DNA of 64,000 nt from an uncultured Methanoregulaceae archaeon (lineage in GTDB: Archaea > Halobacteriota > Methanomicrobia > Methanomicrobiales > Methanospirillaceae), in contig CAVTTL010000001.1 in assembly GCA_963737635.1 (NCBI GenBank), positions 44,999-108,998 of the forward strand, written 5' to 3'. The notes beneath the pieces are model-generated. The model made no database searches. It worked only from the letters and a program-made list of their open reading frames with translations, and was not told the origin of the DNA. The first letter of the stretch is position 1. Each line of letters begins with the position of its first letter. This document shows, piece by piece, positions 6,716 to 62,788 of the stretch. The position numbers and the translations under genes are program-made.

Positions 6716-9398
6716 GCTCCTTCACGAACAGGTCCGCGATGGCATCGGGAAGCGAGGATTCTCACAGCTCTCCCCGGCACAGGAGCAGGCAATCCCCCTT
6801 ATCCTCGAAGAGAAAAACCTCGTCCTGATCGCACCAACCGGCACCGGCAAGACCGAGAGCGCAATGTTCCCGGTCTTTGACGCGCTCCTGAAGATGCCGC
6901 CGGGCGGGGGGTTCAAGGCACTGTACGTGACCCCCCTGCGCTCCCTTAACCGGGACATCCTCGCCCGGATGGAGTGGTGGTGTCGCGAGCTCGGCCTCAC
7001 CGTTGGTGTCCGCCACGGGGACACCCCGCTCAACGAACGCCGGAAACAGGCGCTCTCCCCGCCCGATCTTCTCATCACCACCCCGGAGACGCTCCAGGCG
7101 ATCTTTATGGGGAAAAGGCTCCGCCAGCATCTCAAACACGTGCGATTTGTGATCATTGACGAAATCCACGAGATGGCCGCAAGCAAGCGGGGCGCACAGC
7201 TGGCAGTGGCGCTCGAACGCATTGTAGAATACGCCGGCGAATTCCAGCGCATCGGGCTTTCGGCGACCGTCGGCAACCCGGAGACCATCGCCCGGTTCCT
7301 CTGTGGTACACGTTCCTGCGAGATCGTGCAGGTTCCGGTGGCAAAACAACTGGATATTTCCGTCAGTTTCGTCGGCGATGATTTCAAATACCAGGTACAG
7401 GCACTCGAACGGGCGCTCGATCGGGAAGGTTCAACGCTGGTCTTTGTCAACACCCGGGTGACTGCGGAAGCGCTCGGCCATGCCCTGTTCTCCCGGGGGG
7501 ACGTTGAAGTCCATCATGGTTCACTCTCCAAAGAAATCCGGATCGACGCTGAGGAGAGGTTCAAGAAAGGCGAGATCCGCACGCTCATCTGCACGTCGTC
7601 CATGGAACTCGGCATCGACATCGGCAGGGTCGACCACGTGATCCAGTTCGGTTCACCCCGCGAGGTGGCTCGGTTGGTGCAGCGTGTAGGACGGGCCGGT
7701 CATCAGCTCAACACCATCTCGCGCGGCACGATCCTTGCCACCGGTTTTGACGATCTGTTGGAGTCGCTCGTGATCACCCGGCGGGCGCAGGCAAACGAGA
7801 TCGAGCCGGTGGTGCCGGAAGCCCAGGCAGCAGATGTGCTGGCAAACCAGGTCGCGGCGATGGCCGTAGAGTACGGCGAGATCGAACGCTCCCGGATCCG
7901 GACGATTACCGGGCGCACATCCCTTTTTGCCAGCGCTGACCAGCTCCTCGACGACGTCTGTTCCCAACTCGAAGAGCACCGGCTTATCCGGATCGACGGT
8001 ACCCGGATCGTCACCACTTCACGCGCCCGGCGCTACCTCTCCAGCAACCTCTCGATGATCCATGATGAACGCAAGATCCCGGTCTACGATATGGTCTCGC
8101 GCCGGACCGTGGGAACGCTGGATGAATCGTTTGTCGTAGGCTGGGTGCATACCGGGGCGGTCTTCATCACCAAGGGCCAGCTCTGGCGGGTCCTGGACCT
8201 AAACGAGGGGCGGCTCACGGTCGAACCGGCGAAAAAAGCGATCGGTGAGCTCCCCTCGTGGGAGGGCGAACAGATACCAGTCCCGTTTGCCGTCGCCCGG
8301 GAAGCTGGTGCGATCCGGCGCGAACGCACTACCGGGCAGTACACCAAAGAAAAAGAGAGCATTGCGTTTGTTTCCCATGTCCTCTCCGAGATGGAGAAGA
8401 ACCGGTGCAGGATCCCGACAGACCGGCTCATCACGTTTGAGAATATCGACGATGGCGTGGTCTGCAATGTCTGCGCAGGCCACAAGGCTAACGAGGCGCT
8501 GGGCCGGGTGCTCTCGATTTTAATCTCGGCACGGTACGGGACAACCGTCGGGATCGAACTGGACGCATACCGGATCCTGCTGCGCCTGCCTTCCGCGGTC
8601 CGGGCCGCTGACGTCCGCGACTTCCTTTTATCCCTTGAACCCGCCCACATGCCCGGTATCCTCCGGCTCGCTCTCAAGCGCACGGCGCTCTTCAAGTGGA
8701 AACTGGTCCAGATCGCAAAAAAGTTTGGCGCGATTGACCCGGACGCTGATTACGAGAAGATCAGCATCCAGCGGCTGCTCGACTATTTCGATAATACCGT
8801 CGTCCAGCAAGAGGCATACCGCGAACTGCTTTCCGGGTATATGGATGTGGATGCCGCAGCACAGATCATAAGCCTCATCAAGACCGGCGAGATTGAAGTC
8901 GCCATCGGCCCTCACTCAATCATCGGCGCAGATGGCATCCTTTCTTCCCGGGATATGATCCCCCCGCCGACTGCAGACCAGGCCGTGCTTGCCACTCTGA
9001 AACGGCGGCTCGAGCAGGACGAAGTCATCCTTGCCTGCATGAACTGCCGGAGCTGGAAGAGCAAAACGGTTGTTTCCCGGGTGCCAGACGTCCCCCAGTG
9101 CCCCAAGTGCGGCGCCCGGCTGATCGCTGCCCTCAAACCGTACGAGGGGGATGCCTACGATATCGTCTCCAAGAAGAAAAAAACCGAGGAGGAAAAGGCC
9201 ATCGAACAACGCTTGTTTCGGAACGCGAACATCGTGCTTTCGAGCGGGAAAAAAGCAGTGATCGCGCTCTCGGCCCGGGGGGTAGGACCGGAGCATGCAT
9301 CCCGAATCCTTGCCACCCTTGCAGACGGCGATGCCTTTTACCGCGAGATCCTGAAAGCAGAGCGGACGTTCATCCAGACGCACCGGTACTGGGCATAA
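6705..9398 (+). CDS. lhr: Lhr-family SF2 helicase with C-terminal Cys-rich motif
   Basis: APTGTGKT, TTPETL, IIDEIHE, GLSAT, VHHGSL, SSMELGID and QRVGRAGH motifs; C-terminal CMNC...CPKC. Confidence 0.92.
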   Translation: MVLELLHEQVRDGIGKRGFSQLSPAQEQAIPLILEEKNLVLIAPTGTGKTESAMFPVFDALLKMPPGGGFKALYVTPLRSLNRDILARMEWWCRELGLTVGVRHGDTPLNERRKQALSPPDLLITTPETLQAIFMGKRLRQHLKHVRFVIIDEIHEMAASKRGAQLAVALERIVEYAGEFQRIGLSATVGNPETIARFLCGTRSCEIVQVPVAKQLDISVSFVGDDFKYQVQALERALDREGSTLVFVNTRVTAEALGHALFSRGDVEVHHGSLSKEIRIDAEERFKKGEIRTLICTSSMELGIDIGRVDHVIQFGSPREVARLVQRVGRAGHQLNTISRGTILATGFDDLLESLVITRRAQANEIEPVVPEAQAADVLANQVAAMAVEYGEIERSRIRTITGRTSLFASADQLLDDVCSQLEEHRLIRIDGTRIVTTSRARRYLSSNLSMIHDERKIPVYDMVSRRTVGTLDESFVVGWVHTGAVFITKGQLWRVLDLNEGRLTVEPAKKAIGELPSWEGEQIPVPFAVAREAGAIRRERTTGQYTKEKESIAFVSHVLSEMEKNRCRIPTDRLITFENIDDGVVCNVCAGHKANEALGRVLSILISARYGTTVGIELDAYRILLRLPSAVRAADVRDFLLSLEPAHMPGILRLALKRTALFKWKLVQIAKKFGAIDPDADYEKISIQRLLDYFDNTVVQQEAYRELLSGYMDVDAAAQIISLIKTGEIEVAIGPHSIIGADGILSSRDMIPPPTADQAVLATLKRRLEQDEVILACMNCRSWKSKTVVSRVPDVPQCPKCGARLIAALKPYEGDAYDIVSKKKKTEEEKAIEQRLFRNANIVLSSGKKAVIALSARGVGPEHASRILATLADGDAFYREILKAERTFIQTHRYWA

Positions 9399-10245: not shown

Positions 10246-11946
10246 ATGAATATTTTCAATCATATTCGGGCTGATTCTATGGGCGAAGACCGGCACAACA
10301 TGGAAGATTACGAGCAGACAAAGGCGACGTTTAGCATCGAAGTTCCCGAGTACTACAACTTCGGCTTTGACGTCATCGATGCCTGGGCAAAAAAGGACCG
10401 GAACAAGCTTGCCATGATCTGGGCAAACCAGAACGGCGAGGAGAAGAAGTTCAGTTTCCTCGACATGTCCAACCTCTCCAACCAGGCAGCGAACGTTCTG
10501 TTGAAATACGGGATCAACAAGGGCGACCGCGTCTTCCTTATGCTCCCCCGGATCCCGGAGTGGTGGATCTTTGTGATCGCGCTTATCAAGCTCGGCGCTG
10601 TCTACTGCCCGGCCCCGACCATGCTCACCCCCCGGGACATCAAATACCGGATCAACAAAGGTAAATTCCGGATGGTCATTACCGATCTGGAAAATGCGGG
10701 CAAGATTGAGGAGATCTGCAACGAATGCCCGACACTCTCCTGCCGGTTTGTCGTGGATGCAGAGATCAAAGGCTGGGCAAGCTGGCCCTACGAGCTGCTG
10801 TACCCGGCTCCGGTCTCCCACCATTCTGTCAGTATTCCCGACGAACGGCGCACGAAAAGTACCGATCCGATGCTGATTTATTTCACCTCCGGTACCGTGG
10901 GGGAGCCAAAGATGGTGCTCCACAACCACGACCACCCGCTCGGCCAGATCGTCACCGCCCGGTTCTGGCAGGACATCAGGCACAACGACCTGCACTTTAC
11001 CGTCACCGATACCGGCTGGGCAAAATGCGGATGGGGAAAAATCTTCGGCCAGTGGATCGAAGGGGCCTGCCTCTTTGTCTATAACTTCACCGGGAAGTTC
11101 AACGCAACCGAGCTCCTCCCGCTCCTTGAGAAGTACCAGATCACCACGTTTTGCTGCCCGCCCACGATCTACCGGATGCTGATCCTCGCGGATCTCGATA
11201 AGTTCGATTTCTCATCATTACGCCACTGCACCAGTGCCGGCGAACCTCTCAATCCTGAAGTGATCCGGGTCTGGAAAGAAGGCACCGGCCTTGCCATCCG
11301 GGAAGGGTACGGCCAGAGCGAGACCTGCTGCTGTGTCGCCGAATTCCCGTGCCTCGAGCTCCGGCCCGGTTCCATGGGGAAACCCTCGCCGGGCTGGAAT
11401 GTGGCGATCCATGATGACGAGGGCCGGCCGGTCGGTGTCCGGGAAGAGGGCAGGATCGCGATCTCCGTTACTCCTCCGCCACCCGGTCTCTTTGTGGAGT
11501 ACCTGGATAACCCCGACGAGAACAAAAAATCGTTTGTCAAGGGCTGGTATTACACGGGAGACAAGGCGTACAAGGACGAAGACGGGTTCTACTGGTTCGT
11601 GGGCCGGGACGATGATGTGATAAAATCGTCCGGTTACCGGATCGGGCCGTTCGAGGTCGAGAGTGCGTTAATCGAGCACCCGGCCGTCAGGGAGGCTGCG
11701 GTCGTGGGTGCACCGGACCGGCTCCGGGGATTGATCGTGAAGGCGTTCGTTGTCCTCAACGAAGGGTACGAGCCCTCGGAGATGCTTGTCCGGGAGATCA
11801 AGACCTACGTGAAACGCACTACCGCACCCTACAAGTACCCCCGGGCCATCGAATTTGTCGACGATCTTCCCAAAACCCATTCCGGCAAGATCCGGCGCGC
11901 TGAGCTGCGCGAACGGGAACTCCGGAAATACCGGGAACTCAAGTAA
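10246..11946 (+). CDS. Medium-chain-type acyl-CoA synthetase (AMP-forming), copy 1
   Basis: [49 protein letters not shown] and PKTHSGKIRR motifs. Exact start uncertain. Confidence 0.92.
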   Translation: MNIFNHIRADSMGEDRHNMEDYEQTKATFSIEVPEYYNFGFDVIDAWAKKDRNKLAMIWANQNGEEKKFSFLDMSNLSNQAANVLLKYGINKGDRVFLMLPRIPEWWIFVIALIKLGAVYCPAPTMLTPRDIKYRINKGKFRMVITDLENAGKIEEICNECPTLSCRFVVDAEIKGWASWPYELLYPAPVSHHSVSIPDERRTKSTDPMLIYFTSGTVGEPKMVLHNHDHPLGQIVTARFWQDIRHNDLHFTVTDTGWAKCGWGKIFGQWIEGACLFVYNFTGKFNATELLPLLEKYQITTFCCPPTIYRMLILADLDKFDFSSLRHCTSAGEPLNPEVIRVWKEGTGLAIREGYGQSETCCCVAEFPCLELRPGSMGKPSPGWNVAIHDDEGRPVGVREEGRIAISVTPPPPGLFVEYLDNPDENKKSFVKGWYYTGDKAYKDEDGFYWFVGRDDDVIKSSGYRIGPFEVESALIEHPAVREAAVVGAPDRLRGLIVKAFVVLNEGYEPSEMLVREIKTYVKRTTAPYKYPRAIEFVDDLPKTHSGKIRRAELRERELRKYRELK

Positions 11947-12030
11947 CCCGAACTATCATCACCTTTATTTTTAGAAATTCCGCCGCTTTGTCCATATCCG
12001 GGCACCAAAAAAACATGAGCCCGGATATTT

Positions 12031-53482: not shown

Positions 53483-53752
53483 ATGCCGAAAACCGTGCCG
53501 TTGATCGTCTATTCCTTGGAAACCTGCCCGCACTGTGTAATACTTAAGAATTCTTTAAAGAAGGGCGGATACGCATTTTCCGAGCGCGACCTGTCAACTG
53601 CTGAGGCCCTCACTGAGCTTAGGGTAAACGGCGTCTTTGTTAACGAAGCGCCTGTTCTCCAGCGGGGCGACGATTTCTACACGACCGATGACCTTTTCTC
53701 TGGCGGGATGTTGGACGAAAAGAAACTCAGCGCGATACTCTCGGGGGCATAA
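53483..53752 (+). CDS. nrdH: NrdH-like glutaredoxin
   Basis: YSLETCPHC (CxxC) and APVL; TAATG overlap with nrdD. Confidence 0.85.
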   Translation: MPKTVPLIVYSLETCPHCVILKNSLKKGGYAFSERDLSTAEALTELRVNGVFVNEAPVLQRGDDFYTTDDLFSGGMLDEKKLSAILSGA

Positions 53753-55935
53753 TGGCGCGACGGGAGACCCTGCAGCAGACTCTTGACGGCAGCTTTTCCC
53801 CGGCCCTCCCTTTTGTCCGGACAACCGATGGCCACATCATTGAGTGGGACCGGAACCGGATTGCCGAACAGATTATAAAAGAGACGAAGCTCGTCGAGAC
53901 GTTCTATGGGTACAAGGGCGCGGACCATGCGACTGCCCAGGAAATCGCCCGGCTGGTCGAGCAGCGCATCTTTGCTCTGGGCTTAAAATCGCTCTCGGGC
54001 CCGCTCATCCGGGAGATTATGAACATCACTCTCCTCGAGAAAGGCATGGTACAGGTACAGGAACGTCTGCACCCGGGTCGGTACACCGGTCTACGACGCG
54101 CACCAGATCGATGTAGGTAAGGGATTCGAATCTCACGAGAACGCAAACCTCCAGGAAAATGCCGAAACCTCGCATAAAAAGAAGGCTGACAAGATCTCAA
54201 AGGAGCAATACCTCCTCCAGCTTCCTCCGGATCTAGCCGACCATCATCTCTGTGGCGAGATGCATATCCACGATCTTGAATATTTCGGGACACGCCCGTT
54301 CTGTCAGGACTGGGATCTTCGGTACTTTTTCTACTACGGTCTCATGCCGGACGGTAACGGGACGAAGGCCTCTGTCGCTGGCCCGGCAAAAAGGGCGGAG
54401 GTTGCAATCCTCCATGCCGTAAAAGCGCTTGGCAGCGCCCAGACAAACTTTGCCGGTGGGCAGGGTTATTACAATTTCCTGACTTTCCTCGCACCGTATA
54501 TGGAGGGCATGGGGTATGAAGAGATCCGGCAGAACATGCAGATGTTTGTCTATGAGATGACACAGATGATGGTCGCACGGGGGGGCCAGCTCGTATTTTC
54601 TTCGGTACAGCTCTCCCCGGGTGTCCCGGCGCTCTGGCAGGATAAACCCTGCATCTATAAAGGGAAAGTCTGGGACGGGAAGCAAGCGCCACGCCGCACC
54701 TACGGCGAATTCGAGCGGGAAGTCCGCATGCTCTTTAAAGCACTCATGGAGGTGATGATTGAAGGAGATTACTGGGGCAAGCCGTTCAATTTCCCAAAAC
54801 CCGAGATCAGCATCGAGCCGGACTTCATGAACGAACGCGAAGCGTTCAACCGTGCCTACCCGGACCTCCCGACCTACCGGGATCTGTATCTTATGACCTT
54901 CGAACTTGCGTCCAAGTTCGGAACGCCATACTACGACAACCAGCTCCCGGCATACCGGGGAGCGGGAAAAGGCATCTCATGTTACCAGTGCTGTGCCTAC
55001 CAGTTTTCCGCTGTAGCCGACAAAGACTCAGATTTTGACAAAAAACTGTTCTTCGAGGATGGCCGGCACTTTTCGATGGGTTCATGGCAGGTGGTCTCGG
55101 TGAACTGCCCACGTGCCGCATACAAGGCAGAAGGAAACGATGATCGGCTCTTCGCCGAACTTCGGTCCCTTATGGATGTGGCTATCGAGCTCTTCCGGAT
55201 CAAGCGCCGGTGGATGGACATAATCCGGGCAAACGGCCGGATGCCGTTTGCAATGCAGCGCCCAAAAGACCCCAATACCGGGGATTGTGGGGCTATCGCA
55301 GTCGATCTCGAAGGTCTTGTGTACACGATCGGTGTTGTCGGCGTAAACGAGATGGTCCAGCACCACATCGGTAAACAGACCCATGAGTCAAAGGCTGCAT
55401 TCAAGCTGGCCGTCCGCGCAATGACCGAGATGGAGCTCTACGCCCGCACCCTCTCTGAGAAAAACCATATGACGATTGCCCTTGCCCGGACCCGGCAGAG
55501 ACGACCGGGCAGCGGTTTGCTGTTGCAGATCTTATCGACCGGCGCTACCACGATGCTGCTGCAAAAGTGATTAAGGGCGACCTCGAGTACGCACTCGAAA
55601 ACCTCGGAAAGACCCGGGATCTCCCCATCTACTACACGAACGGGACACATGTTGCGCCGGGCGCCGATGTCCCGCTCACGAAACGTATGGAAATCGAGAA
55701 TGTCTTTTTCCCAATCGTTGACGGGGGGAATATCTTCCATATATGGCTCGGCGAGGCCCGACCGGATCCCCGCGGTCTCATGGACATGGCGATGAACCTC
55801 TGCCGGAACACGCAGATCGGCTACTTCGCATTCACCCGGGATCTCACCGTTTCGCTCAGGCAGTTCCGCGAAGACCGGCATGGCAGGAAAACAATCGAAG
55901 CGGGGACACCTTCAGACATCCCGGTTAAAGCATAA
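53752..55935 (+). CDS. nrdD: Class III ribonucleotide reductase NrdD homolog lacking the C-terminal Zn ribbon and glycyl-radical loop (apparent frameshifts at ~54055 and ~55492)
   Basis: ATP-cone-like N-terminus, HIHDLEY, GGQG, FNFPKP, YQCC, VSVNCPR, TIGVVGVNEMV, TPAET, YYTNGTH, GGNIFH, GYFAFTRDLTV. It then ends SLRQFREDRHG...VKA* with no CxxC or RxxGY. Confidence 0.88.
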
Positions 55936-56009
55936 TCCTAGTATTTGCTTCTGGAAAAACCTGCGATAAAAAATTGCAGAAGAGAATATTCATTAACCAT
56001 GACGGCTTT

Positions 56010-56813
56010 TCACGGAACCGTTGCAGGTGTACGGGATCGGACAGCGCAATCGGTAGGTATCGCTGACGGAATCCTAGTAAGGCAGATACCGATACAGTCC
56101 GCGGCCTCGCCCGTCAGTGCATAACGGGAATACCGCCCATCTTTTCTCACCCGGAGAATCCCATCGCAGATCAACCGTTTCACATGCCAGGTAATTGTCG
56201 GTCCTGAAACTGCAAGCGCCTGTTCGAGATCCGTTCGGGTACTCTCTGGTGCAGCGACAATCAGGCTGATGATCTTCTTTTCCATATCGTGACCGAGGTG
56301 ATGGAGGACTTTCTGTTCAATCTCGTCGTACCGGCCATTGTTCTCAAAATAACTGGTCCTCCCTTTTACCTTATGTGCAACGATCTTTCTCTGGGCGCAA
56401 AGAAGTGCGAGGTGATAGGTCAGTGCACCCCGGGAAAGTGAAAGCTGTTGCTGCAGGGCCGGGAAACTGATCCCCGGGAACCCGATAATGACCTGGTAGA
56501 TTCCACACCGTGCACCTTGCTCAAGTATATTGCTTCTTAAAATCCGCCGGAATCCCAGAAATGCGTATATTTTACATGCAAAAAAAACTTCAAGCGGGAT
56601 GACACAGATGGGGCATAGGAAAAGTGCCACGACAATTGCCATCTCCTGCAACGAGAGATCCCAGAAACTGATCGGCACGAGATCGGAAGCAGATGTCCCG
56701 GTCGACCCATATGCCGGTGTGACGCTGTATTCTCCAGACAACGCTGCAGCAGGAACACCTAAAGAGAGCACCAGTATAAGAAAAACACTGGCAACAATGA
56801 ATGCCTGCTTCAT
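56010..56813 (-). CDS. Membrane-tethered double winged-HTH regulator
   Basis: Signal peptide, second hydrophobic segment, then FPGISFPALQQQLSLSRGALTYHL and STRTDLEQALAVSGPTITWHVKRL. Confidence 0.8.
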   Translation of the reverse strand: MKQAFIVASVFLILVLSLGVPAAALSGEYSVTPAYGSTGTSASDLVPISFWDLSLQEMAIVVALFLCPICVIPLEVFFACKIYAFLGFRRILRSNILEQGARCGIYQVIIGFPGISFPALQQQLSLSRGALTYHLALLCAQRKIVAHKVKGRTSYFENNGRYDEIEQKVLHHLGHDMEKKIISLIVAAPESTRTDLEQALAVSGPTITWHVKRLICDGILRVRKDGRYSRYALTGEAADCIGICLTRIPSAIPTDCAVRSRTPATVP

Positions 56814-59359: not shown

Positions 59360-60271
59360 ATGCCGGTGATACTCATGGATAATCGCGCAGAATTGATCCG
59401 CCAGATCAAAAAGATCGATCTCGCAACCGGTTTCCTGGTGGAAGGGCTCCAGGCAGGACTTCACCATTCCGTCTTTAAAGGACAGGGAATCGAATTTACT
59501 GAGATCCGGGAATATGTTCCCGGGGATGATATCCGGTCGATCGACTGGAAGGTAACAGCACGGTACAACCACCCGTTCATCAAGGAATTTACCGAGGAAC
59601 GGGACCAGACCTTCTATTTTGTCATCGATATCTCCGGTTCTTCCGGCTTTGGTTCGACCGTAACCAAACAGATAAAGATTCTCGAAGTGACGGCGAGTCT
59701 TGCATTTGCTGCAATCAGGAATAATGACCGGGTCGGTCTTATGCTCTTCTCCGATCAGGTGGAAAAATTTATCCCGGCAAAACGGGGCAGGAAACACTTG
59801 GCCGGGCTTTTCAACGAGATGATCGATCACAAGGCGGCCTCGAAAAAGACCGATCTCGCTGTCGCGGCAAGGTATCTCGCAAATATCCTTTCCCGCCGGA
59901 CCTCAGTCATCATTCTCTCTGATTTTGCTTCTCCTTCATTCTTTTTGCCGCTGCGAATCCTGCAGCGCCGGCATGAGGTTATAGCGATCAGGGTCGTCGA
60001 CCCGCGCGAACAGGACCTGCCTGATGTAGGCCTTATCGAACTCGAAGACCCTGAGACCGGAGAACAGGTGCTTGTTGATACATCGGACCCGGTTTTCCGG
60101 CAGCGGTACCGTGAACTGGTGGCTGAATCCGACAAGAGACTACATGCAGATTTTGCACGGAACCGGATTGAGGAAGTTACGCTTTCAACTGATGAGCCTT
60201 ACGATGTTCCCTTAAAAGAGTTTTTCAGGGGTGTTTCAAAAAGGAGGCGGGATCATGCCAGGATTGTATGA
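59360..60271 (+). CDS. DUF58 protein
   Basis: GIEFTEIREYVPGDDIRSIDWKVTAR, DISGS, VIILSDF, DPRE. Confidence 0.93.
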   Translation: MPVILMDNRAELIRQIKKIDLATGFLVEGLQAGLHHSVFKGQGIEFTEIREYVPGDDIRSIDWKVTARYNHPFIKEFTEERDQTFYFVIDISGSSGFGSTVTKQIKILEVTASLAFAAIRNNDRVGLMLFSDQVEKFIPAKRGRKHLAGLFNEMIDHKAASKKTDLAVAARYLANILSRRTSVIILSDFASPSFFLPLRILQRRHEVIAIRVVDPREQDLPDVGLIELEDPETGEQVLVDTSDPVFRQRYRELVAESDKRLHADFARNRIEEVTLSTDEPYDVPLKEFFRGVSKRRRDHARIV

Positions 60272-61204
60272 GCCGATCTGGCTCCTTGTGCTGCTGGTGA
60301 TCCCGGTCCTCGCCGGGCTCTATTACTACATTATCCGGAAAAAGAAGAAGGAAGCGATCGCATTTTCCCGGGTTGCGTTTGCGAAGTCAGCCCTTGGGGA
60401 TGCACAGAGATCAAAACGTTCGCACATCCTCTTTGTAGTGGCTCTTGCAACCATCGCTCTTCTGGTAATCGGCCTTGCCGATCCCCACATCCCGCTTGCA
60501 CAGACAAAAGAAGGAACGAACGTGATCCTCGTGATCGATGATTCCGGGAGCATGCAGGCCACCGATTATCAGCCGTCCCGTATCGAAGCAGCAAAGAGCC
60601 AGCCGAACAGCTTGTTGGAAATCTCGGCCCGGAGGACGCGGCCGGTGTCATTCTCTTTGACACCGGCGCGACCACGGTCGCGTACCTGAGCCAAGACAAA
60701 ACGCGGGTTGAAGAAAAGATTGCCGGTATTGCTCCCAGTCCTGGCTCGACCGCAATCGGTGACGGCCTTGCTCTTGCCGTCGACATGGCCCAGTCGGCAC
60801 CGGATAAGAAAAGCGTCATTATCCTGCTTTCGGACGGGGTTAACAATGCGGGCCTGATCACACCTGATGAGGCAACTGCGCTTGCAAAATCCGCCGGCAT
60901 CCAGGTTGACACGATCGGCATTGGGACTACCACACAGACCGTCCTCGGCTACGACTGGGTGGGCAACCCGGAATATGCTGGTCTCAACGAATCTGCCCTT
61001 GAGTCCATCGCAGATCAGACCGGGGGCAAATACTACAAATCGGTCGATGCGCAGACCTTAAAAGAAATCTATACCAACCTGAAGCCGGGTACTGAACCTG
61101 TAGCTGAAGAGACCAGTATCAAGGACTGGTTCATTTTTGCTGCGCTCGTCCTGCTCTGCGCAGAATTCTGGCTCCGTTACGGCGGAGGGAGGATTATCCA
61201 GTGA
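60255..61204 (+). CDS. BatA-like vWA domain membrane protein (apparent frameshift at ~60599)
   Basis: N-terminal TM, MIDAS DDSGSM, STAIGDGL, LLSDG, GIQVDTIGIG, IADQTGGKYY and a C-terminal TM. One added base joins the frames. Confidence 0.88.
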
Positions 61205-62788
61205 AGGCTCGCTATGCGGGAGTACTCATTCTCCTCTTTGCCGCACTGCTCCTTCCACCTGCCACTGCCGCCGGCGTGAAGATCACGTCAGACCAGACCG
61301 AGTATTATTTTGCACTGGGACAGATCGCCCAGCTCTCACTTCCCGTATCGAATACATACTCCTCACCTATAGAGGGAACACTCCGCTTTACTACGATCCA
61401 GCAGCTCCAGAATGCCGGGAATACCCTGACGATCACGAAAAACCAGATCTATCCAACTGCGTTCCCGGCCGGAAACTCCTTCCTCAACGTCAGCGCCGGC
61501 ACATCCAACGTTTCCCAAACGATCAAGATCCAGATAGCTTACCAGTACACGGATTCCGCACCTGTCCTCATCACTTTGCCGGAAATCCGTATCCATTTCG
61601 TACAGGATCTCTCTCAGGTACACAAACCAATCGAGCATTCCCGTTTCCAGTACCAGCGGTGCCGGCCTGCCCGGTGGACTGGGCAACAGTTCTGTCCAGC
61701 TTGCGCAACAGGCTGTCTCTGCCCAGCAACAGGCTGGCGTGGATACAGGATCAACCTCTTTGCAATCATCCGCGTCTTCCTCTCAGAACGGTCAGATGTT
61801 CCAGAATACTTCAGTACTTAAAGCGCAGATCCAGCAGGCTGCTGCACAAATGGATGCGGCACGGAATACTTTTAACCAAGCACTTGCTGCAGACCCCTTA
61901 CTCCGGCAGGTCAACAAGACCCTCACGGTGGACGGATTTTTTCGACAATCCGTGACCACGAACCCCTCAAGCGGCGACAACGGTACCTTTGCGATGATCT
62001 ACCAGGATCGCACCGGGGAACAGGTAAACCTGCAGGGCGCTCTTATAAACGGGACTGTTTACTCGGTACTTGAACAATCGGCGGCAGCACTCAACGTGAC
62101 CACATCGCTTGGCACCAACGCGACCTACCAATCATTTACGAACGATCTCATTCATTCAGAATTCCAGAGAAACCGGACGCTCATGAATGTAACCCTTACC
62201 GGCACGACAGTCAACGTCACCTATCTCTCTAGGCAGGGAGCGAGAGCATACATCCATGCCAAGATCGATAATGGAAATGTGACGTTGGTGTCGCTTGATA
62301 GAGAAAGTACAGATATAACCTCCCTCCTTCTCGGGATTATCTGTGCAATCTTCATTGCAGTCGGTGCAGGAATGATGTACCGACACGTCAAAGTACAAAA
62401 AAAGGTGGCTTCTGCCGCATTCCCCCGGCAATCGGCTGTACCACCAGACTACCAAAGCGAAGTTCTGAGCCTGCTTGCCGAAGCGGAAGCAGCATTTGCC
62501 AACCGGAACTACAAAAACGCATACGGTTTTGTCGGCCAGGCCACAAGGGTCTATTTCTCCTGCGAGCAGGGAGAGCGCCGCGAACTCACCAATGGCGAAC
62601 TTGTGCACCTTCTTGCAGCATCACGGCATGCAAAAGACCTCGCTGATATCATTGCTCTCCTGGAACGATGCAGCGACGTGGAGTTTGCAAAAGGCATGCC
62701 TGACACCGATGAATTCGCTGCTATGATCCGGCAGGTACGGGCATTTGTCTCACCGGATCTTCTTCAACCAGGGATAAAATCCCGGTGA
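61201..62788 (+). CDS. Secreted/membrane protein of the MoxR operon with C-terminal DUF4129-like helical domain (apparent +1 frameshift at ~61617)
   Basis: Signal peptide; removing G from CAGGTAC gives QDLSQYTNQSSIPVSSTS, which reads into the 61739-62788 frame; late TM then ELTNGEL..CSDVEFAK. Confidence 0.7.

Follow-up and report, generated by a model that had tools for sequence, protein, structure and literature searches.

A probable natively split class III ribonucleotide reductase in Methanomicrobiales, with its glycyl-radical domain on a separate small protein

By the usual description, a glycyl-radical enzyme is one chain with a radical domain of its own, and the only free domains known (GrcA/YfiD) are optional repair parts of pyruvate formate-lyase (PFL). 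The class III ribonucleotide reductase (RNR) of the methanogen Methanosarcina barkeri, NrdD3, reportedly works with an NrdH-like redoxin and a ferredoxin:disulfide reductase, as Wei et al. are said to have described in 2015. The NrdD3 subtype is recognized by an extra cysteine in the finger loop, a loop motif without Met, the absence of the active-site Glu (E495 in T. maritima) and an NrdH-like partner (PMC4493059, PMC9669993). For PFL it is established that the activase installs a radical on YfiD (PMC8683613, PMC13450708), and a 2026 review names the formate lyases as the only class of glycyl-radical enzymes with known spare-part proteins (PMC13450708). RNRs in two pieces are known from the class II NrdJa/NrdJb of Pseudomonas aeruginosa and from fragmented phage nrdA genes, whose products are joined via interaction domains (PMC3045599; cited in PMC9669993). 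Here we describe a coupled nrdH–nrdD locus on the forward strand of a 64,000-nucleotide stretch (hereafter, the window) of contig CAVTTL010000001.1, from an uncultured Methanoregulaceae archaeon. Its nrdD gene encodes a class III catalytic subunit, here called the core, with neither the Zn ribbon nor the glycyl-radical domain (GRD). Comparison with related genomes makes it probable that this class III RNR is natively split and receives its radical domain in trans, the first of the explanations offered by the original prediction, which had been made from the letters of the window.

The core gene (53752..55935, + strand) has a true product of 727 amino acids (aa), although the window copy is broken into frame pieces, as discussed below. 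This product is an NrdD barrel by homology, above curated thresholds. The Pfam model NRDD (PF13597) matches with E values of 1.6e-102 and 3.6e-22 over model positions 1-510 of 562, and the middle frame piece alone scores 362.6 bits against TIGR02487 (cut-off 326.35), the match ending at position 529 of 581. Homology thus runs through GYFAFTRDLTV, as had been claimed; beyond it the sequence is SLRQFREDRHGRKTIEAGTPSDIPVKA, followed by a TAA stop at 55933-55935. In an alignment with GRD-bearing relatives, the Ser of TVSLRQF takes the place of their first Zn-ribbon Cys (TVCLGC), and the core stops 27 residues later, against the roughly 28 first estimated. The Cys4 Zn ribbon of NrdD is lacking on the core chain, where the NRDD match ends at 510, and neither the gene nor any other part of the window encodes the glycyl-radical motif RVxGY. 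No CxxC or RxxGY is encoded in any of the three forward frames from 55850 to 56010, where a convergent gene ends, just as the original prediction had it. The 64-kb window likewise holds no GRD-like open reading frame (ORF), and no ORF of at least 120 aa with the radical-SAM (S-adenosylmethionine) motif CxxxCxxC, which agrees with the claim that no nrdG lies nearby.

What remains of the catalytic machinery is well preserved. The segment RPFCQDWDLRYFF (54293..54331, +) can be aligned with TCVQH in the P. copri NrdD structure 8p23. The Cys of RPFCQDW (codon 54302-54304) is presumed to be the active-site cysteine of strand βA. The finger-loop segment GISCYQCCAYQFS (54971..55009, +) reads SCYQCC, with the double Cys at 54989-54994, so that the YQCC noted earlier is indeed kept. 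Directly upstream, and also as first described, lies an nrdH-like gene for a redoxin of glutaredoxin fold (53483..53752, +; 89 aa from the ATG) with CPHC encoded at 53525-53536. The TAA stop of this gene and the ATG start of nrdD overlap by one base (TAATG). The nrdH-like product matches Pfam Glutaredoxin above the cut-off (E 3e-5, 24.6 bits); its NCBIfam matches to NrdH/YruB are weak only. An 89-aa gene is called at the same position on the near-identical contig L081.

A conserved stand-alone Zn-ribbon/GRD protein does exist in Methanomicrobiales, Methanoregula included. When the small GRD proteins of the mobile elements described below were used as queries, 286 clusters carrying Pfam NRDD were found, of about 98-187 aa and typically 120 aa, from Methanofollis fontis, Methanolacinia petrolearia, Methanoregulaceae and Methanoregula sp., among others. 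The free protein, of about 120 aa, consists of Zn ribbons plus ...SRVTGYLQDVSGWNAGKQQELKDR. It matches PF13597 at positions 506-562 and TIGR02487 at positions 541-580, whereas the core ends at 510 and 529, respectively; the free GRD therefore covers the model positions that the core lacks, which supports the natively split reading. Its consensus is M.W..EQ..LA.KY..L.DIP..ERRYKCHTCH.VV...PCP.CGE..LEIMCPLDHCHC.HEI..GIEYCPLCG.AVCPECGSHDV.QISRVTGYLQDVSGWNAGKQQELKDRVRY.VA, with ten invariant Cys and two nearly invariant His that make up three four-ligand motifs. The Zn-ribbon cysteines C71, C74, C79 and C82 are invariant, and the glycyl-radical motif SRVTGY is carried by this separate protein. The ratio of nonsynonymous to synonymous substitution rates (dN/dS) is 0.06 for the free GRD and 0.04 for its NrdD glycine loop. 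The only family models matched by the small protein are those of NrdD (PF13597 and several NrdD NCBIfam models). In the databases, the proteins of about 120 aa go by names such as oxidoreductase, Spt4/RPABC4, CHY zinc finger and NrdD, and some are labelled "anaerobic ribonucleoside-triphosphate reductase" by pipelines owing to the Pfam match. The mobile-element and Methanomicrobiales forms have an N-terminal extension in common, which favors a shared origin for the free GRDs.

In some genomes the two pieces are found side by side. On the contigs L088/L089, L090 and L175, the order is a small GRD ORF, a glutaredoxin/nrdH gene and a GRD-less nrdD, the GRD ORFs being 99-130 aa long (for example, ...CPICGGHHVEVISRVTGYLSPVDSWNNGKKQELKDRVRYNV). 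These contigs, together with L091, appear to be viral or mobile elements, with genes for Prim-Pol, SNF2/DEAD helicases, PolB, dCMP deaminase, N6/N4 methyltransferase and IS605 OrfB. The contig L175 also encodes an NrdG2 activase (137.3 bits versus a cut-off of 131.15). The contig L091 has a core and a glutaredoxin gene and shows no GRD within 15.7 kb. Both pieces also occur in at least one metagenome-assembled genome (MAG), GCA_039698055.1 (Methanoregula sp. isolate 7_bin.123), with the free GRD (P0407) on JBDKTL010000016.1 and a GRD-less core (L007) on JBDKTL010000008.1. It is the existence of a stand-alone GRD, the complementary model positions, the adjacency on mobile elements and the co-occurrence in this Methanoregula MAG that lead us to favor a natively split RNR, and that support the corresponding suggestion of the original prediction. 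The two-piece enzyme appears to be spread across Methanomicrobiales and archaeal mobile elements.

The truncated form of the core is widely conserved. A search with the repaired core protein returned about 1,980 homologues, and the best 120 clusters (84-94% identity, 100% coverage) are 726-732 aa long and come from Methanoregula and other Methanomicrobiales, including M. boonei 6A8. In a set of genomes with a single representative of each GTDB species, relatives of the core are encoded by 590 stretches. The best 80 of these, from Methanoregula, Methanolinea, Methanospirillum and Methanomicrobiaceae, are GRD-less; all except one (L050, which ends out of frame) finish in IGYFAFT(R/K)D(L/I)TV(S/A)L(R/K)QF.E plus about 20 variable residues. 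Across 82 related loci, L050 again excepted, the shared ending is ...GYFAFTRDLTVSL(R/K)QF.E followed by a variable tail. In the window, this conserved new C-terminus is IGYFAFTRDLTVSLRQFRE (55816..55872, +), at which point GRD-bearing relatives run on into the Zn ribbon (TVCLGC...), and it is followed by a poorly conserved 20-residue tail, whose sequence differs between species, and the TAA stop (55873..55935, +). Among 75 core genes, dN/dS is 0.076 for the whole gene, 0.059 for the barrel, 0.052 for the new C-terminus (residues 689-707) and 0.50 for the last 20 residues. In 22 orthologues, neither C185 of RPFCQDW nor the finger-loop cysteines C411, C414 and C415 vary. In 68 of the 82 related loci the core is immediately preceded by a gene for a CP(N/H)C redoxin; the other conserved neighbors are divergent genes for LigT and a CCA-adding enzyme and a convergent helix-turn-helix (HTH) regulator, none of them a radical generator. 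Judged by this conservation, the GRD-less nrdD is a working gene, and the loss of the domain is conserved rather than strain-specific. The close orthologues are thus not full length, nor is selection on the gene relaxed, the two outcomes that would have spoken against the original prediction.

The window copy itself, taken at face value, might be read as a pseudogene decaying in one strain, with two frameshifts and a lost C-terminal domain. Breaks in its reading frame at 54055 and at 55490-55493 leave three frame pieces (53752-54120, ~54053-55570 and ~55492-55935). At 54055 (+) an extra G shifts the frame by +1 (GTACAG-G-TACAGG), and at 55490..55493 (+) one C is missing from a C-run (frame -1; 55490-55492 in the window). 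Orthologues read LLEKGM(V/I)QYRNV across the first site and ALARTPAETTGQRF across the second. Four metagenome contigs, L081-L084, reached via the neighboring HTH protein, share 99.94% identity with the window, and in each of them the 727-aa gene is intact. The same two corrections and the same intact form are seen in four sequencing runs from three studies (X1-X4; depths 5-10): the extra G is absent from L081, L082 and the contigs of all four runs, and the C-run is CCCC in L081-L084 and in X1-X4. Relative to L081, 10.8 kb of the window contain four indels of one base each (54055, 55490-55493, 60599 and 61617), and the latter two split a BatA/VWA gene (60231-60689 / 60785-61204) and the gene after it (61201-61821 / 61739-62788). 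Since the nrdD indels are absent from four independent short-read assemblies, and similar indels break two neighboring genes, both frameshifts in nrdD are assembly errors and the gene of the organism is intact. An exact look-up of the frameshifted 436-aa ORF of the window returned no record, consistent with an artefact. This density, roughly one indel every 2-3 kb with none of them present in the short-read assemblies, points to an unpolished long-read assembly, and any other broken ORF of the window is suspect too. The original prediction was right that no frameshift accounts for the loss of the GRD, but it had overlooked both artefactual breaks, by which the window gene is not a single ORF. 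With the indels missing from contigs and runs 99.9% identical to the window, with equivalent indels splitting two other genes within 8 kb, and with the GRD-less form conserved order-wide at the low dN/dS given above, decay of the gene in one strain is very unlikely. The exceptional L050 (10001-12127 of OY970061.1, a Methanoregulaceae MAG chromosome) has a 708-aa core ORF with an out-of-frame end, ...MDMAMKSAGLPRSGTLPSPG..., the frame changing about 30 residues before the usual core end; this looks like another single-base frameshift near the 3' end and may again be an assembly error.

From these observations we propose how a natively split class III RNR might work. The core has retained the barrel along with the βA cysteine and the double-Cys finger loop, and has no GRD; the radical domain would be the separate protein of about 120 aa with its N-terminal helix, its three Cys/His metal-site motifs and its SRVTGYLQDVSGWN glycine loop, whose gene lies elsewhere, flanked by pyrF and a cbiZ-like gene. 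The NrdG2 radical-SAM activase, from a third locus, would abstract the Cα hydrogen of the glycine on the free 13-kDa protein, much as PFL activase acts on YfiD. The activated small protein would then dock on the core, probably through its N-terminal helix and the conserved TVSLRQF.E end of the core, so that the glycine loop could enter the barrel and reach the finger-loop cysteine, where a thiyl radical would form and start nucleotide reduction. The NrdH-like redoxin would re-reduce the active-site cysteines, as in the NrdD3 type of methanogens. Docking of the two chains, activation of the free GRD by NrdG2 and catalysis are all, at this stage, steps that we infer from sequence.

Several observations weigh against a split enzyme of this kind. 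An AlphaFold2 (AF2) model of the core, built with 22 orthologues of 84-93% identity, has a mean predicted local distance difference test score (pLDDT) of 42.7 and is unusable; that of the small GRD protein reaches a pLDDT of 72, with the glycine loop below 50. A Foldseek search of the GRD model against the PDB gave no match with E <0.9 and only generic Zn ribbons. The presence of the GRD gene in the genome from which the window comes is indicated indirectly, by matching coverage only: in run X1, a 16.3-kb contig about 81% identical to the GRD/cbiZ-like locus has a depth of 10.6, the contig of the window having 10.4, and run X2 shows the same pairing (10.5 and 11.5). For NrdG2 the evidence is at the level of the family and order: scores above the cut-off come from Methanoregulaceae (154.9 bits), Methanospirillum purgamenti (146.7 bits) and another Methanomicrobiales MAG (159.2 bits). 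Finally, in Methanomicrobiales the genes for the core, the GRD and NrdG2 are scattered over three loci, and the coupling partner of the GRD gene is a cbiZ-like gene, not nrdD or nrdG. In 84 loci, the 10 kb on either side of the core contain no GRD-like ORF, and the one NrdG2 locus examined, in a Methanoregulaceae MAG (L176), has no nrdD or GRD gene among its neighbors. The 2.3 Mb of loci analysed contain no NrdG-like radical-SAM ORF other than an unrelated enzyme on the contig L085. This 300-aa radical-SAM protein was considered as a candidate NrdG and rejected, as it scores 28.7 bits against TIGR02495, far below the cut-off.

The partner of the GRD gene raises the question of another chemistry. 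In 61 of the 67 loci with enough downstream sequence, the GRD gene is followed by a gene for a protein of about 300 aa that combines CbiZ (adenosylcobinamide amidohydrolase) with a Cys-rich zf-like part, and where gene calls exist the start of this cbiZ-like gene overlaps the GRD stop by 4 nt. An example is L092:8360-9265 of Methanolacinia petrolearia (CP002117.1), and the same arrangement recurs in L094-L174 and L178-L180. The conserved block comprises genes for deoxyhypusine synthase, pyrF, the GRD, the cbiZ-like gene, DUF1858 and an RPA-like gene. This coupling would hint at corrinoid chemistry and, together with the lack of an nrdG near either the core or the GRD gene in Methanomicrobiales, would suit a core that draws on a different radical source (for example, one based on an adenosyl-corrinoid) or that has turned to a non-radical role. 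We nonetheless consider such a core quite unlikely: the mobile GRD–nrdH–core modules do without a cbiZ-like gene, and one of them carries NrdG2, an activase also present in the family; moreover, the NrdD glycine loop is preserved exactly in the free GRD, under strong constraint, and the catalytic cysteines of the core are invariant. For the present we treat the GRD–cbiZ-like coupling as conserved synteny. A CbiZ-like partner that helps to make, repair or regulate the glycyl radical, and so ties adenosyl-corrinoid chemistry to a glycyl-radical enzyme, would place the system between class II and class III ribonucleotide reduction, but is a most improbable arrangement.

A profile-free scan of 1.8 billion representative proteins showed two kinds of close relatives of the core. 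GRD-bearing NrdDs, up to 70-72% identical to the core (P0122-P0124), share the SCYQCCAYQF loop and continue as ...TVCLGC...CPNCGS..V.HISRITGYLQAVSGWN.AK.QEL.DR.RY; further GRD-less relatives extend down to 52% identity. In a crude neighbor-joining tree of intein-free cores, the GRD-less forms fall in at least four places among GRD-bearing NrdDs, and they are always broken at one junction, just before the first Zn-ribbon Cys. This scatter could reflect repeated fission, re-fusion, or transfer with recombination, the tree being too crude to count events. The existence of such close GRD-bearing relatives, and the spare-part precedent (PMC13450708), might instead suggest that the core forms a heterodimer with a full-length NrdD, the small GRD being a mere spare part like GrcA/YfiD. 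We think this unlikely, given that no GRD-bearing copy is found among the best 120 clusters or the best 80 of the 590 genome stretches, (whole genomes were not searched), that no full-length NrdD named for Methanoregula turned up in any search, and that the mobile elements carry only the core and the small GRD. The heterodimer and the different radical source had both been offered by the original prediction beside the split enzyme; neither is needed to explain these data, and neither gained support.

Many of the core relatives (P0121-P0151), GRD-bearing and GRD-less, contain one to four inteins at recurring sites in the barrel, several with homing-endonuclease domains; P0125, of 2288 aa, is an example, and one intein site lies inside the finger loop (GISCYQC / intein / CAYQF). 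A split intein joining the two pieces was considered and rejected: neither the window core nor the small GRD protein has an intein domain, the tail of the core being 20 variable residues, and the inteins of the relatives sit within the barrel, away from the GRD junction. On the contig L085, the closest GRD-bearing relative (P0122, 72% identity) is followed by a gene for a 58-aa 2x[4Fe-4S] ferredoxin (11772-11948) and preceded, at 6840-7545, by two small ORFs (121 and 113 aa) without a family match; there is no adjacent nrdG. The ferredoxin and the small ORFs may be electron-delivery partners of P0122.

Two further features of the window complete the locus. The ATP-cone-like N-terminal region of the core (53812..54057, +) matches Pfam ATP-cone with E 8.5e-4 and 20.3 bits, below the threshold of 25.8 in the window fragment, and its dN/dS is 0.17. 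The earlier assignment of this region as ATP-cone-like thus finds backing in many orthologues, which have a precomputed PF03477 match, and falls short of the Pfam threshold in the window itself. The convergent gene downstream (56010-56813, -) has a product of 267 aa with a pair of winged-helix domains (HVO_0163_N and HTH_24/ArsR-like) and, by prediction, membrane segments at the N-terminus; in 51 related loci a homologue is found downstream of the core.

If the split reading is correct, a whole methanogen order and some archaeal virus-like elements appear to run an obligate two-piece anaerobic RNR. The radical carrier could then be made, activated, labelled and replaced apart from the 80-kDa catalytic subunit, and repair would be cheap, with only a 13-kDa protein to replace after oxygen damage, which would be relevant to methanogens at oxic–anoxic boundaries such as peat and soil. 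The parallel to class I RNRs would bear on how radical storage and catalysis separated in RNR evolution. There is also a consequence for annotation, as the 727-aa proteins are currently named as complete NrdD.

Set against the systems described at the outset, the core looks like an NrdD3 by its double Cys, the Gln in place of Met and the nrdH partner. A PDB sequence search with the core gave only weak partial matches to the NrdD entries 8p23 and 9d3x. Like M. barkeri NrdD3, it belongs to a methanogen and has the barrel, a double-Cys finger loop without Met (QCCA) and an NrdH-like redoxin in the operon; unlike it, the Zn ribbon and GRD are not on the same chain but would be on a separate 120-aa protein. 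A gene for a ferredoxin:disulfide reductase was not identified beside the locus, and no specific search for one was made. Split RNRs are known for class II and phage class I and not for class III, and a natively split class III RNR is apparently undescribed: we found no description of a GRD-less NrdD or of a free NrdD-type GRD in the full-text literature, subscription journals not being covered. As with NrdJa/NrdJb and phage nrdA, the catalytic polypeptide would come from two genes whose products must assemble. Those enzymes, however, are of class II and class I and are split within or after the barrel, whereas here the radical-storing domain itself would be split off, and the two genes, unlike those of other split RNRs, are unlinked in Methanomicrobiales. 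With class I RNRs the analogy is functional only: there, too, a stable radical is held on a separate small subunit that docks to start catalysis, but β (ferritin-like, with a tyrosyl or metal radical) has no homology to the Zn-ribbon glycyl-radical protein, and the chemistry and relations to oxygen differ. GrcA/YfiD offers a similar picture of a small free glycyl-radical protein that serves a large catalytic subunit in trans and has a cognate radical-SAM activase, as is proposed here. The small protein falls outside the GrcA/YfiD family, as it belongs to the NrdD type, carries three Cys/His metal-site motifs and an extra N-terminal helix, and is apparently obligatory. Whereas YfiD rescues an oxygen-damaged PFL that normally has a domain of its own, the catalytic subunit described here never has one, and its small partner would be obligatory.

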